Positions 35,890 to 40,706 of a stretch of 64,000 nucleotides of DNA are shown one piece after another. The position numbers and the translations under genes were made by a program. This DNA is from Thermodesulfobacteriota bacterium (GTDB lineage Bacteria > Desulfobacterota_D > UBA1144 > Nemesobacterales > Nemesobacteraceae). The notes beneath the pieces were generated by a model. That model was not told the origin of the DNA. It did no database searches and saw only the letters and a program-made list of their open reading frames with translations. Within the stretch, counting starts at the first letter, position 1, and each line of letters opens with the position of its first letter. The stretch is taken from positions 489,164 through 553,163 of the forward strand of contig OZ244920.1 in the NCBI GenBank assembly GCA_965221875.1, in the 5' to 3' direction.

Positions 35890-35914
35890 AGGGGCGCCAT
35901 TGCGCCTCTTTTTT
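35890..35914 (+). terminator. rho-independent terminator (hairpin + T6) of the ATPase gene
   Basis: AGGGGCGCCattGCGCCTCT + TTTTTT. Confidence 0.55.
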
Positions 35915-36542
35915 GTGTGCCGAGCATGAACAGCAGCTTGGGGGTGCGAGTCCCCTATACAACCTGATGGCGGTGAAGTATTAGCGAAGCGCAAGGGCCG
36001 TGTCGCGAGGCATGGTCTGAAGGAAGTGCGTAGCAAAGCCGCGACCCGATGGACAAGAACTGAATACGAGGCCTGTGCGGCCGGACGAGCGGGCAAATGA
36101 TCGCGAAGTCCATAGTCATCAAGGGCCGTGGAGGTAAATTCGGCGGGTGTGCGGTGAAGGCTGTTGGTCTTACCTCGGGAGGTCTGCGTCGTGTCCCAAA
36201 TAGAGGACTGAGCGGTTCGCAAGGGCCGTGATCGCGGTGCAGAAGTCAGCAGAGGGCATAGTAGCCACGGAAGTGGCGAAGGCCCGAACGATGGAAGGGA
36301 ATAAGGACGGCGAGCTCATGGGGGCAAAGCGGCAGAATAACCAGCTGGAGCTGGCCTTTGGCAAGAGGAGCGAGGGTGAAGCCCGAAGCGGAGCTTGCGA
36401 AGGGACCGAAGTCTGCGTGGCGCGAGCCGAAACCGAAGCCCGGCGGTTTTCATCAGCTTAAATCCATCGAACCGCCACGTACGGACCCGTACGCGTGGTG
36501 GTGTGGGAGGGGAGGAATCGAGAGATTTCCCCCTATCCCGAT
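35915..36542 (+). repeat. 628-bp repeat copy 1; candidate ORF-less group IIC intron
   Basis: Starts GTGTG directly after the terminator T-run; D5-like hairpin CCGCCACGUACGG..CCGUACGCGUGGUGG (CGC triad, 2-nt bulge); D6-like hairpin with GAGA loop and bulged A at -8; >98% identical to copies 2 and 3. Confidence 0.55.
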
Positions 36543-36592
36543 TGAGGCATTTGCATAGTTGAGGATACCCTTACAGCGCAAACGCCTCTGCA
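36541..36592 (+). repeat. IS4-like IRL/IRR pair separated by ~10 bp (excision scar or minimal MITE) abutting repeat copy 1
   Basis: ATTGAGGCATTTGCATAGTTGAGGATACC resembles IRL 7405-7435; CTTACAGCGCAAACGCC resembles IRR 9316-9335. Confidence 0.4.
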
Positions 36593-36664
36593 GGCAGTCT
36601 TTACAAATTAAACTGAAGTATTTACTATCTAGTTGACGTTACCTCCGCAGTAGGACGGCTTGCC

Positions 36665-36865
36665 ATGTCAACTGTAGAAGAAATAAAATCCGCCATTTCG
36701 GCTCTTTCCAAAGAGGATTATATCCGTCTGCGCGAGTGGTTCTCCGAGAAGAACTGGGAACAGTGGGATAAGGAAATCGAAAGAGACTCGTCATCTGGAA
36801 AGCTGGACTTCTTGATGGAAGAGGCGGTTGCGGAGAAAAATCAAGGACGACTCAGTAAACTTTAG
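36665..36865 (+). CDS. type II antitoxin (putative addiction module component, ParD/Phd-like)
   Basis: 66 aa MSTVEEIKSAISALSKEDYIRLREWF..; immediately precedes the toxin gene with a 0-nt gap. Confidence 0.6.
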   Translation: MSTVEEIKSAISALSKEDYIRLREWFSEKNWEQWDKEIERDSSSGKLDFLMEEAVAEKNQGRLSKL

Positions 36866-37120
36866 ATGCATAAAGCGACGAGTCGTTTCTGGTCCTGCTT
36901 GGAAGCTCTTCCGGAAGAAACAAGAGAATTAGCCCGTAAGAATTACGCTTTGTTAGAGAACAATCCTCGTCATCCCTCCCTTCATTTCAAGAAAGTCGGG
37001 AATTTCTGGTCAGTCAGGGTCGGCCTCAATCACAGAGCCCTTGCCATTGAAGATGAAGATTGCTTTATATGGGTTTGGATCGGAACTCATAGGGAATATC
37101 AGAGCATGCTGCGGGGATAA
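36866..37120 (+). CDS. RelE/ParE-family toxin
   Basis: 84 aa; ..YRVGLNHRALAIEDEDCFIWVWIGTHREY typical ParE/RelE C-terminal pattern. Confidence 0.6.
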   Translation: MHKATSRFWSCLEALPEETRELARKNYALLENNPRHPSLHFKKVGNFWSVRVGLNHRALAIEDEDCFIWVWIGTHREYQSMLRG

Positions 37121-37280
37121 TCACGGATATCCGCTTTCAACTCTGACCACACCCTGTCTTAAGGTCCTCTTTTTTCCTTCTATCCCTTGACACCCGCAAA
37201 AACGTGCTTACTTTATAGTTGGCACTTGGAAGACAGGAGTGCCAGACAAGCTTTAAAAAGTTAAAAAGGAGGTATTAGAG

Positions 37281-37571
37281 ATGGAGATAAGACCACTACA
37301 TGACAAGGTCTTGATCAAGCGTCTTGACGTGTCTGAGACGACGGAAGGGGGAATCATAATCCCCGACACCGCGGCTGAGAAGCCCCAGCAGGCGGAGGTT
37401 GTCGCCGTGGGGAAGGGAAGGCCCATTGAAAACGGAGAAGTTTTTCCGCTTGACGTAAAGCCCGGCGACAGGGTCATATTCGGAAAATACGGCGGAAGCG
37501 AGGTTTCGCTCGGCGGCGAGGATTACCTGATTATCGCCGAACACGAAATACTCGCGGTGATAGAAGACTAA
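37281..37571 (+). CDS. groES: co-chaperonin GroES
   Basis: 96 aa; [44 protein letters not shown].. canonical. Confidence 0.95.
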
Positions 37572-37591
37572 CAAAGGAGGAAACTAGTAAA

Positions 37592-39232: not shown

Positions 39233-39262
39233 AATCCCCCCTGTACCTGGCAGAAACCACGA

Positions 39263-39299
39263 AGCGGGCACGGCGCACGAGCGTCCTGCCCGCTTTTTT
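39263..39299 (+). terminator. groEL rho-independent terminator
   Basis: AGCGGGCAcggcgcacgagcgtccTGCCCGCT + TTTTTT. Confidence 0.6.
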
Positions 39300-39927
39300 G
39301 TGTGCCGAGCATGAACAGCAGCTTGGGGGTGCGAGTCCCCTATACAACCTGATGGCGGTGAAGTATTAGCGAAGCGCAAGGGCCGTGTCGCGAGGCATGG
39401 TCTGAAGGAAGTGCGTAGCAAAGCCGCGACCCGATGGACAAGAACTGAATACGAGGCCTGTGCGGCCGGACGAGCGGGCAAATGATCGCGAAGTCCATAG
39501 TCATCAAGGGCCGTGGAGGTAAATTCGGCGGGTGTGCGGTGAAGGCTGTTGGTCTTACCTCGGGAGGTCTGCGTCGTGTCCCAAATAGAGGACTGAGCGG
39601 TTCGCAAGGGCCGTGATCGCGGTGCAGAAGTCAGCAGAGGGCATAGTAGCCACGGAAGTGGCGAAGGCCCGAACGATGGAAGGGAATAAGGACGGCGAGC
39701 TCATGTGGGCAAAGCGGCAGAATAACCAGCTGGAGCTGGCCTTTGGCAAGAGGAGCGAGGGTGAAGCCCGAAGCGGAGCTTGCGAAGGGACCGAAGTCTG
39801 CGTGGCGCGAGCCGAAACCGAAGCCCGGCGGTTTTCATCAGCTTAAATCCATCGAACCGCCACGTACGGACCCGTACGCGTGGTGGTGTGGGAGGGGAGG
39901 AATCGAGAGATTTCCCCCTATCCCGAT
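39300..39927 (+). repeat. 628-bp repeat copy 2; candidate ORF-less group IIC intron inserted right after the groEL terminator
   Basis: Same sequence as copy 1; begins GTGTGCCGAGC directly after T6. Confidence 0.55.
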
Positions 39928-39963
39928 TGCTGTTTTAAAATTTTTTTAATTTTCCCTTGACAG

Positions 39964-39992
39964 TTTAAGTAAATTACTTATATTTATAGCGT
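39964..39992 (+). promoter_or_regulatory. sigma70-like promoter (TTGACA-16-TATATT) driving a short transcript that ends at the 40044-40077 terminator
   Basis: TTGACA 39964-39969, TATATT 39986-39991, in an AT-rich spacer between repeat copies 2 and 3. Confidence 0.3.
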
Positions 39993-40043
39993 TGATTAGA
40001 AACATTGATCAATACTCATCCTTCATCCTCCTTTTTGTTAGGA

Positions 40044-40077
40044 AGAGCGCCTCGGCCCCCCTGAGGCGCTCTTTTTT
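40044..40077 (+). terminator. terminator-like hairpin + T6 immediately preceding repeat copy 3
   Basis: AGAGCGCCTCggccccccTGAGGCGCTCT + TTTTTT. Confidence 0.5.
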
Positions 40078-40706
40078 GTGTGCCGAGCATGAACAGCAGC
40101 TTGGGGGTGCGAGTCCCCTATACAACCTGATGGCGGTGAAGTATTAGCGAAGCGCAAGGGCTGTGTCGCGAGGCATGGTCTGAAGGAAGCGTGAAGCAAA
40201 GCCGCGACCCGATGGACAAGAACTGAATACGAGGCCTGTGCGGCCGGACGAGCGAGCTAATGATCGCGAAGTCCACAGTCATCAAGGGCCGTGGAGGTAA
40301 ATTCGGCGGGTGTGCGGTGAAGGCTGTTGGTCTTACCTCGGGAGGTCTGCGTCGTGTCCCAAATAGAGGACTGAGCGGTTCGCAAGGGCCGTGATCGCGG
40401 TGCAGAAGTCAGCAGAGGGCATAGTAGCCACGGAAGTGGTGAAGGCCCGAACGATGGAAGGGAGTAAGGACGGCGAGCTCATGTGGGCAAAGCGGCAGAA
40501 TAACCAGCTGGAGCTGGCCTTTGGCAAGAGGAGCGAGGGTGAAGCCCGAAGCGGAGCTTGCGAAGGGACCGAAGTCTGCGTGGCGCGAGCCGAAACCGAA
40601 CGCCCGGCGGTTTTCATCAGCTTAAATCCATCGAACCGCCACGTACGGACCCGTACGCGTGGTGGTGTGGGAGGGGAGGAATCGAGAGATTTCCCCCTAT
40701 CCCGAT
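40078..40706 (+). repeat. 629-bp repeat copy 3; candidate ORF-less group IIC intron
   Basis: Same family; one extra nt relative to copies 1 and 2. Confidence 0.55.

Follow-up and report, generated by a model that had tools for sequence, protein, structure and literature searches.

Three probable ORF-deleted class C group II introns, most likely mobilised in trans, around groESL in an uncultured Candidatus Dadabacteria lineage

Results and Discussion

Three nearly identical elements in the window (the whole 64-kb stretch of DNA that was analysed) very probably represent one bacterial class C group II intron that has lost its ORF, is non-autonomous, and was most likely mobilised in trans. The family to which they belong lives in Candidatus Dadabacteria genomes, and its ORF-less members probably depend on a helper enzyme encoded elsewhere. 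The copies and the sites that they occupy are, in window positions:

35915-36542, + strand: copy A, predicted ORF-less class C group II intron, GTGTG...CCCGAT, 628 nt
39300-39927, + strand: copy B, predicted ORF-less class C group II intron, 628 nt
40078-40706, + strand: copy C, predicted ORF-less class C group II intron, 629 nt
35890-35914, + strand: target of copy A, an 8-bp GC-rich hairpin (35890-35909) and T-run (fold and terminator scan)
39261-39299, + strand: target of copy B, the terminator hairpin of groEL (37592-39232) with T6
40040-40077, + strand: target of copy C, a long hairpin and T-run (fold)

Copies and Insertion Sites

Pairwise identity among the three copies is 98.3-99.8%. 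A and B are 1 nt apart (99.8%), and C shares 98.3-98.5% with the two overall (98.3% with A, from which about 10 substitutions and one 1-nt indel separate it). C also has variants that resemble those of the full-length relative L004 and look more ancestral, including the EBS1 loop GCUAAU. Gene conversion, and not very recent transposition, could account for the near identity of A and B, which are directly oriented and separated by 3.4 kb. A 17-mer of the intron 5' end has exactly three occurrences, as has a 30-mer of domain V, where shuffles would give 0.1 and 0.0. No RT ORF lies within the copies; the longest sense ORF is a stub of 74-77 aa in A and B and, by read-through, reaches 117 aa in C. 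The GTGTGCC start of every copy abuts the TTTTTT of a different GC-rich hairpin. An earlier note, made from the letters alone, had described three 628-bp copies, more than 98% identical, each immediately 3' of a different hairpin with T6 and devoid of an RT-like ORF; its coordinates proved exact, the ORF lengths agree with it, and sequence and folds bear out the placement.

The 45 nt upstream of the copies fold with -17.2 (A), -26.8 (B), and -25.4 kcal/mol (C). The terminator scan flagged A and B and missed C, only because the loop of this hairpin exceeds the limit of the scan. Hairpin A starts 6 nt past the stop codon of a DUF4143/AAA ATPase gene (34652-35884; Pfam), and target C ends a short unit with a near-consensus promoter of its own (39957-39984). 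All three copies are sense-oriented behind + strand genes. A hairpin with a T-rich run precedes every complete copy examined, which comprises the three in the window and L001-L005, L016, and L023 from elsewhere. All 12 copies compared have T as the first base of the 3' exon, and so do 17 of 18 when every flank seen is counted.

Ribozyme Structure and Classification

The Rfam D1-D4 models recognise all three copies with E values of about 1e-28, RF02001 (D1-D4-3) with 135-138 bits (135.5 for copy A) and RF01998 (D1-D4-1) with 55-56 bits (55.9 for copy A). The domain V/VI model RF00029, run with relaxed filters on copy A alone, gave 41.4 bits, above its gathering score of 40. The covariance-model search that the earlier note had proposed thus returned group II matches, for D1-D4 in all copies and for domains V/VI in copy A. 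The following parts are assigned in copy A:

36021-36025, + strand: AGGAA motif within UCUGAAGGAAG (36015-36025; family alignment)
36093-36100, + strand: candidate EBS1 loop GCAAAUGA in domain I (Rfam structure line)
36289-36469, + strand: domain IV remnant with basal stem CGAUGGA (36289-36295) / UCCAUCG (36463-36469)
36471-36502, + strand: domain V, about 32 nt, with CGC triad, 2-nt 3' bulge, and 4-nt loop (Rfam alignment and fold)
36504-36540, + strand: domain VI with GAGA loop and bulged putative branch-point A at 36535 (fold)

All six ribozyme domains are intact in the window form. The Rfam alignment sets CCGC of domain V against GAGC, so that CGC replaces the AGC triad, and the distal stem of this hairpin is 3-4 bp, shortened as in class C. 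The bulged A lies 8 nt from the 3' end, and the intron terminates in GAU at 36542. Domains V and VI fold with a minimum free energy of -39.9 kcal/mol (z = -4.7; 0 of 200 shuffles were as good), in agreement with the triad, bulge, loops, and bulged A that had been described for these hairpins. Domain V is identical across 11 aligned family members, an invariance of its stem that arises partly by construction, because the loci were retrieved via a domain V pattern. The AGGAA motif, whose bulge placement was taken from the Rfam structure line, is the epsilon' bulge motif of class C and is invariant in every family member that covers the stretch.

In the candidate EBS1 loop, AAA (36095-36097) complements the UUU that ends the 5' exon. 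In 6 of 10 copies, which show three pair types, the variable base of EBS1 follows position -1 of the exon; since the permutation P of about 0.09-0.14 is not significant, this covariation is suggestive only. The EBS1 loop of copy C is mismatched to its own exon at position -1. In domain IV a 5' arm of about 150 nt has been kept, and compensatory changes occur at intron pairs 378/544, 391/520, 408/500, and 431/436. An RNAalifold consensus of 11 family members holds 200 pairs, 15 with compensatory double changes and 37 with one-sided changes. The RNA structure of the family is under constraint.

With the criteria of Toor et al. (2006; PMC1702495), the class C traits present are the CGC triad, the short domain V, AGGAA, the GUGUG...GAU ends, the post-terminator site, and a small ribozyme. 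The Rfam matches, these features, and the class IIC protein of the relatives described below together support the assignment to class IIC proposed in the earlier note.

Full-Length Relatives and Deletion of the Reading Frame

Six loci in related Candidatus Dadabacteria (Thermodesulfobacteriota) genomes, L001, L003, L004, L014, L016, and L020, have the same ribozyme (88-97% identity, with the ORF stripped from the full-length copies by sequence anchors for this comparison) and about 1,245 extra nt. This full-length form measures about 1.86 kb, and its domain IV encodes an RT/maturase of 458-462 aa, which is intact and has a YADD motif in five of the six loci. The proteins contain RVT_1 and GIIM domains and no endonuclease domain. 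Their best PDB match is the GsI-IIC RT (1.6e-144, 485 bits), followed by 7UIM and 5HHJ/5HHL. The closest entries are all class IIC, and LtrA (IIA) reaches only 4e-36. Judged by these matches, the full-length relatives encode an intron protein of class C. In copy A its remains are:

36318-36461, + strand: stub of the intron-encoded protein ORF, 47 codons from ATG 36318 in GAGCUCAUG, reading MGAKRQNNQLELAFGKRSEGEA...
36447-36454, + strand: filler TTTTCATC of the deletion junction, between ...GCCCGGCGG and AGCTTAAATCC

Compared with the full-length relatives, the ORF is about 1,245 nt shorter at this junction, and the stub of copy B matches the N-terminus of the L004 full-length protein at 38 of 40 residues. 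Sequence comparison confirms the window element as an ORF-deleted derivative of the 1.86-kb ORF-containing family. The junction GGCGG-TTTTCATC-AGCTT is common to A, B, C, L013, L019, L023, and L024, and its translation appears in nine stub proteins (P0003, P0007, P0008, and P0010-P0015), whose read-out tails differ where the tail is visible. The same junction is found at about ten further sites elsewhere. L023 is a complete ORF-less copy of 630 nt, located after a terminator on a 2.14-Mb chromosome. That one deletion junction occurs at many sites in several genomes indicates that the ORF-less form itself spreads. Loss of the ORF was seemingly repeated in the family, L005 and L002 having other junctions and each grouping with a different full-length copy.

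When the full-length copies were inspected by eye, without computation, no consistent conserved stem or microhomology joining the recurrent deletion endpoints was seen. The filler TTTTCATC is absent as such from every full-length copy, and the occurrence of the 6-mer TTCATC near position 790 in these copies is within chance. Exact look-ups of the stub ORFs returned nothing for the 74-aa form of copy B or for P0001, and for the copy A form a sister contig only. A scan of viral contigs for the domain V of the family found none.

Empty Sites and the Mode of Arrival

Two contigs from sister strains (L006 and L007) encode a GroEL identical to that of the window and have flanks that are 98-99% identical, and they are without copies B and C. 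Excision of copy C restores their sequence exactly. Excision of copy B does so except for one T, the empty site having T8 and the window T6+T1. There is no target-site duplication at B or C relative to these contigs. For copy A no empty site was found, A being situated within about 19 kb that are wholly absent from L006. The groEL terminator exists with three alleles: empty (L006, L007), with a full-length intron (L016, L018, L020), and with an ORF-less copy (the window, L008). The polymorphism of the insertions among near-identical strains points to recent activity.

These sites also bear on whether the copies could be an IS fragment or a MITE that depends on a transposase and whose termini are intron-like by resemblance only. 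The element is short, repeated, and non-coding, and the region is crowded with IS elements, as this reading would have it. The element, however, has neither terminal inverted repeats nor a target-site duplication, it is recognised by three independent Rfam group II models, and its full-length relatives encode a group II RT/maturase. The chance that a transposable element of this kind has been mistaken for an intron is close to nil. The Rfam matches, the GsI-IIC RT-like protein of the relatives, and the lack of a duplication refute this reading, which the earlier note had listed among the outcomes that would overturn its own.

According to another account, full-length introns at A, B, and C were converted or recombined to the ORF-less allele at the DNA level, and this allele never moved as RNA. 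The family is indeed a mosaic, in which D1-D3 of the window copies are nearest to L004 (97.6-98.4%) and the domain IV arm is nearest to L016 (95.5-96.2%). L023, too, has the shared junction yet groups with the full-length L003, and a full-length copy occupies site B in L016, L018, and L020. The strains with the closest flanks (L006 and L007, about 98-99%) are nonetheless empty at B and C, whereas the strains in which B holds a full-length intron have less similar flanks (89-97%). The account further demands that full-length introns inserted three times independently and were then converted in all three cases, and the ORF-less introns of Thermosynechococcus elongatus set a precedent for movement as RNA. 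We consider replacement at the DNA level very improbable.

The copies might instead be immobile relics, dead remnants of a past burst whose helper is gone and which now only splice or are inert. This would concern their present state, and leaves the identity of the element and its mode of arrival undisputed. The cognate protein was not traced to the same contig, by a weak and indirect test. On the complete chromosome OY763921.1, exact domain V matches mark just two members of the family, both ORF-less and one broken by an IS110 element. Decayed forms exist as well, namely remnants of 242 nt in L015 and L017 and a degenerate copy in L024. Against these signs of decay stand the single difference between A and B in 628 nt, the intactness of all ribozyme domains, and the polymorphism among near-identical strains, and we consider it very improbable that the window copies are such relics.

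Mobilisation in trans, the preferred reading, would proceed as follows. Read-through of the upstream terminator would bring the intron into RNA, from which the ribozyme would splice itself out with a maturase supplied in trans. The intron-protein particle would then recognise the stem-loop of a terminator in single-stranded DNA, together with a 3-nt IBS1 (UUU) and a 1-nt IBS3 (U); of this, the target pattern is observed and the IBS/EBS pairing is suggested. Reverse splicing would take place 5-6 nt past the stem, and the helper RT would copy the intron into DNA. The insertion would be precise and without duplication, with boundaries that the empty sites show.

The Helper Enzyme and Known Systems

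In the 64-kb window there is no RT gene. Of the best 120 representative homologues, none was on a contig of 2,095,670 bp, the length recorded for the contig with the stub ORFs, and neither was any member listed for the ten closest protein clusters; the test is indirect and weak. The control for this tracing worked, as the L003 protein does appear on its own chromosome. Of the search for an intron-encoded protein and further copies that the earlier note had suggested, the second part was borne out by ORF-less copies at about ten other sites, and the first yielded no RT gene in the window.

The IIC introns known by 2006 were all components of retroelements (Toor et al., 2006; PMC1702495). The window element resembles such introns, among them B.h.I1 of Bacillus halodurans, O.i.I1, and GsI-IIC, in its small ribozyme with GUGUG...AU ends, the CGC and short distal stem of domain V, the AGGAA motif, a short IBS1 and IBS3 (candidate pairing here), and insertion a few nt past the stem-loops of intrinsic terminators (PMC1702495). 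As in GsI-IIC, to whose RT it scores 485 bits, the protein of the full-length relatives is without an endonuclease domain. Unlike the class C introns of that study, the window copies are ORF-less and their host is an uncultured Dadabacteria lineage.

A parallel for the loss of the ORF comes from T. elongatus, whose ORF-less introns have breakpoints in common and are moved in trans with the help of driver proteins (Mohr et al., 2010; PMC2882425). As in TeI3, most of the domain IV ORF has been deleted at one shared breakpoint, ORF remnants are kept, many copies occupy different sites, and there are related ORF-containing introns whose proteins could serve as drivers. In contrast to the terminator-targeting IIC copies of the window, however, TeI3 belongs to the chloroplast-like class/IIB; its EBS/IBS pairings are long, and its protein includes an En domain (PMC2882425). 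Its mobilisation in trans was shown by experiment and its helper is in the same genome, whereas the window element is known from sequence and its helper was not found in the 64 kb. The Dadabacteria ORF also differs from that of TeI3 in its seemingly repeated loss (L005, L002). A second case for comparison is C.te.I1 of Clostridium tetani, an ORF-less intron in a genome with no known gene for a related protein (Zimmerly and Semper, 2015; PMC4424553). The window genome might share this situation, but C.te.I1 is one intron that lies inside genes and undergoes alternative splicing, while the window element is multi-copy and follows terminators. In the papers covered by the search, phrases such as "ORF-less IIC" were not found. 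The earlier note had rated the element as notable, and this was too high: insertion after terminators is normal for class C, and ORF-less derivatives mobilised in trans are known from another class (PMC2882425). It is a fairly ordinary mobile element, the unusual feature of which is the probable reliance on a helper encoded elsewhere.

A more far-reaching reading, which we regard as rather unlikely, is that of a long-lived non-autonomous class C lineage with one junction that persists across Dadabacteria genomes, whose ribozyme and protein-binding arm are matched by recombination to the local full-length intron and which can proliferate also in chromosomes without a cognate RT. If this were true, a non-cognate RT, another cell, or a mobile replicon would supply the helper. 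The introns would form a parasite-of-a-parasite system for terminator-targeting introns, and the alleles of the groEL terminator, whether empty, occupied by a full-length intron, or occupied by an ORF-less one, would make up a natural series.

Introns of this kind could be used to ask how a non-autonomous intron relies on a "driver" reverse transcriptase and evolves together with it. The question is often tied to the origin of shared splicing machinery. The best-studied case of proliferating ORF-less introns is cyanobacterial and of a different class. A class C case would add one junction common to at least a dozen sites, related genomes that contain full-length partners, and presence/absence polymorphism among near-identical strains. 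Existing knowledge of target choice in class C is unchanged by the finding.

Genomic Context

Three 628-bp "intergenic repeats" around groESL can now be annotated as intron insertions with exact predicted splice boundaries, which are backed by natural empty sites. The short unit between copies B and C gave only sub-threshold noise with Rfam at lax thresholds. Downstream of target C lie SCO1/PCuAC genes (40766-41824). As the copies occupy intergenic positions after terminators and before the next promoters, they are probably passengers that are neutral with respect to groESL and to the SCO1 operon, and no effect on groESL expression is indicated. IS elements crowd the region.

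Three class C group II introns behind terminators

Three direct repeats of an ORF-less element lie on the plus strand of the window:

35915-36542, +, intron copy A, direct repeat of B and C
39300-39927, +, intron copy B, direct repeat of A and C
40078-40706, +, intron copy C, direct repeat of A and B

Copies A and B differ by a single base, and copy C is 98.3-98.5% identical to them, with about 10 substitutions and a 1-nt indel; the 64-kb window contains no fourth copy or fragment. Each copy starts with GTGTGCC directly 3' of TTTTTT and is preceded by its own stable hairpin, located 3' of a DUF4143/AAA ATPase gene (A), 3' of groEL (B), or at the end of a short unit that lies 5' of the SCO1/PCuAC genes and has a near-consensus promoter of its own (C). 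TG follows the terminal GAT in all three flanks. Coordinates and sequence agree with the earlier note, which had described three >98% identical copies beginning with GTGTGCC after the T-runs of different hairpins. The same copies occur in a low-coverage long-read contig from an independent assembly (L008-L011, 99.5% identical) and are therefore no assembly artefact.

In an Rfam scan at the gathering threshold, each copy matched group-II-D1D4-3 (135-138 bits, E ~1e-28) and group-II-D1D4-1 (55-56 bits), and relaxing the filters gave 41.4 bits at 36470-36542 for RF00029, the model of domains V and VI (gathering score 40). The covariance models thus recover both the D1-D4 part of all three copies and a domain V/VI, and the hairpins proposed earlier for these two domains are borne out by the RF00029 score and by a minimum free energy of -39.9 kcal/mol, versus -25.0 ± 3.2 for shuffled sequences. 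In the RF00029 alignment, CGC in domain V stands where other classes have AGC, and the bulged A of domain VI is at 36535, 8 nt from the intron end. Size, domain V, the AGGAA motif (36021-36025) and position all correspond to class C as defined by Toor et al. (PMC1702495), for which insertion after terminators is standard behavior. Judged by these sequence features the element is a class C group II intron, which supports the original reading.

Loss of the intron ORF

An exact-pattern scan for domain V located family members in MAGs of Candidatus Dadabacteria/Thermodesulfobacteriota as well as in metagenomes. At six loci (L001, L003, L004, L014, L016, and L020) the same ribozyme, 88-97% identical, carries about 1,245 additional nt between ...GCCCGGCG(G/A) and AGCTTAAATCC. 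These encode an intact protein of 458-462 aa with a YADD motif in five of the six, the ORF of L004 being frameshifted. This protein combines RVT_1 with GIIM and lacks an endonuclease domain. Among solved structures, its top matches all belong to class IIC (GsI-IIC RT, E 1.6e-144; 7UIM; 5HHJ/5HHL); LtrA (IIA) and the IIB protein match far more weakly. Since these relatives share the ribozyme but carry the extra ORF, the window element is a deletion derivative of the full-length intron. It has kept the basal stem of domain IV (CGAUGGA/UCCAUCG), the ~150-nt 5' arm of this domain with the start codon inside, and 47 codons, which in copy B are 38/40 identical to the L004 N-terminus; of the ORF 3' end only a few bases are left. 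The description as ORF-less therefore holds, apart from this stub. The consensus fold of 11 family members contains 200 pairs; 15 show compensatory double changes, including several within the domain IV arm that has been kept. This arm binds protein in other group II introns (PMC2882425), and its retention would fit dependence of the window intron on a helper protein.

The junction GGCGG-TTTTCATC-AGCTT is common to A, B, and C and recurs in L013 and L019, whose 3' flanks differ, in the degenerate L024, and in L023, where a 2.14-Mb chromosome carries a complete copy of 630 nt behind a terminator, only 89% identical to the window copies. When the 74-aa stub was used as the query of a protein search, all 15 proteins recovered were short and none was full-length; eight of the 15 read ...ERPAVFISLNPSN..., the translation of the junction, and P0007 has the junction in another frame. 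Most junction-bearing stubs then read out of the intron into differing tails and hence lie at differing insertion sites. These sequences indicate that the ORF-less form itself spreads.

Other ORF-less copies have the junctions GGCGG-CAGC-AGCTT (L005) and GGCGA-CGT-AGCTT (L002). In a neighbor-joining tree of the ribozyme parts, L005 and L002 group with different full-length copies, L014 and L020, and each retains that relative's version of the last ORF bases, which argues that the ORF was probably lost more than once, at nearly identical points. The 5' endpoints of the seemingly independent deletions, compared across L001-L005, L014, L016, and L020, fall within 1 nt, after CCCGGCG[G/A], and the 3' endpoints within ~6 nt of one another; no stem or microhomology explaining them was found at these loci. 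The family is also mosaic: D1-D3 of the window copies are nearest to L004 (97.6-98.4%) and their domain IV arm to L016 (95.5-96.2%), and L023 has the window's junction, yet groups with the full-length L003. Recombination between ORF-less and full-length copies is the simplest reading; repeated creation of the same 8-nt filler seems unlikely.

Some copies are disrupted. The ORF-less copy in L002 (5064-7206, chromosome OY763921.1) is interrupted at intron position 380, where 1,518 inserted nt encode an IS110-family (DEDD) transposase on the opposite strand. L015 (841-1082) and L017 (10523-10764) hold 242-nt remnants in which intron positions 1-136 are joined to ~507-628 at a CCGAT microhomology. 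Both have the 3' flank of L005, and the upstream hairpin of L017 resembles that of L005, so the three look like one locus. The remnants look like in-place decay of an ORF-less copy; the differing upstream flank of L015 suggests recombination between copies.

Empty sites and target choice

Two contigs, L006 and L007, encode a GroEL identical to the window's (546 aa) and have a groEL-to-SCO1 gap of 278 nt versus 1,534 nt in the window. Removal of 40078-40706 restores their sequence perfectly, and removal of 39300-39927 does so save for T8 in the empty site versus T6 + intron + T. The insertion point lies within the terminator T-run, 5-6 nt 3' of the stem. Comparison of B and C with these empty sites revealed neither target-site duplication nor terminal inverted repeats, as would be expected for reverse splicing; this rules out a transposase-type element, the IS/MITE alternative raised at the outset.

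A hairpin and T-rich run precede all complete copies, and the first 3'-exon base is T in 12/12 copies compared (17/18 of all flanks seen). EBS1 is probably the domain I loop GC[N]AAUGA (36093-36100), whose variable base complements the final base of the exon in six of 10 copies, with three pair types, a trend that is not significant by permutation (P ~0.09-0.14); the candidate EBS1 of A and B matches (AAA vs UUU), and that of C (UAA) has a mismatch at position -1. Insertions at the groEL terminator recur in the clade: L016, L018, and L020 carry a full-length copy there, the window and L008 an ORF-less one, and in L006 and L007 the site is empty. As the flanks most similar to those of the window belong to the strains with the empty site, the comparison favors a direct arrival of the ORF-less form rather than its substitution for a full-length copy.

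The spacer between B and C (39928-40077), without an Rfam match, contains the near-consensus promoter TTGACA-16-TATATT (39957-39984) and, ~60 nt 3' of it, the strong hairpin and T-run targeted by copy C. Possible identities of this spacer are an unknown small RNA and a leader/attenuator for the copper-chaperone genes SCO1/PCuAC. A promoter-like TTGTCT-16-TATATT (40706-40733) starts on the final nucleotide of copy C. Its leading T (40706) is the terminal T of the intron, standing in for the original T-run T, and thus the putative SCO1 promoter is unchanged by the insertion.

The helper protein and known ORF-less introns

None of the 30 larger window ORFs tested is a reverse transcriptase; the region is rich in IS transposases. 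P0001 and P0017, the stub proteins of the window, are assigned to a contig of 2,095,670 bp that is presumably the source chromosome. No contig of this length is represented among the 120 best homologues of the L016 intron protein or among the members listed for the ten closest clusters, both weak negatives; as a control, the L003 protein does appear on its own 1,919,453-bp chromosome in the same listings. A further weak negative is the complete chromosome OY763921.1, with only two exact domain V matches, both ORF-less. No family member was found on viral contigs. The helper may be resident, on another replicon, or already lost.

In bacteria, ORF-less introns are described as rare, and a related intron that encodes a protein is nearly always present alongside them (PMC4424553; PMC3245105). 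The nearest parallel is the TeI3 family of Thermosynechococcus elongatus, whose members share breakpoints and were shown to be mobilized by driver proteins but belong to a different class from the class C introns of the window (PMC2882425). In the literature searched, the survey of Simon et al. (2008) excluded, we found no description of ORF-less class C introns. The window copies would be of greater interest if the genome truly lacks a cognate helper.

Other features of the window

A stretch of ~19 kb between mutS and groES (17285-36597), absent from L006, has intron copy A at its right edge. It holds IS3-, IS630-, IS1595-, IS21-, and Mu-type transposase genes, a Schlafen/AlbA_2 protein, and the DUF4143 ATPase, and looks like an accretion of mobile elements in the window strain. 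The groES upstream region (37192-37254) is duplicated with 95% identity upstream of the DUF4143 ATPase gene (34383-34445), including a CIRCE-like operator, TTGGCACTT-N9-GAGTGCCAG (37219-37245); the units that precede A and B may therefore both be under heat-shock control. A 300-nt direct repeat (10797-11096 and 12896-13195, 99% identical) flanks a DDE transposase gene (11711-12853), inside or adjoining an RTX calcium-binding repeat gene (9546-11639; fragment 13091-13738). On the minus strand, at 354-6369, an animal-haem-peroxidase homologue (354-2117) adjoins a 1,439-aa ORF with four or five tandem 327-330-bp repeats (3337-4725), and at 50985-53578 a TnpB/IS605 OrfB-type gene (50985-52157) adjoins a second DUF4143/AAA ATPase paralogue (52340-53578).
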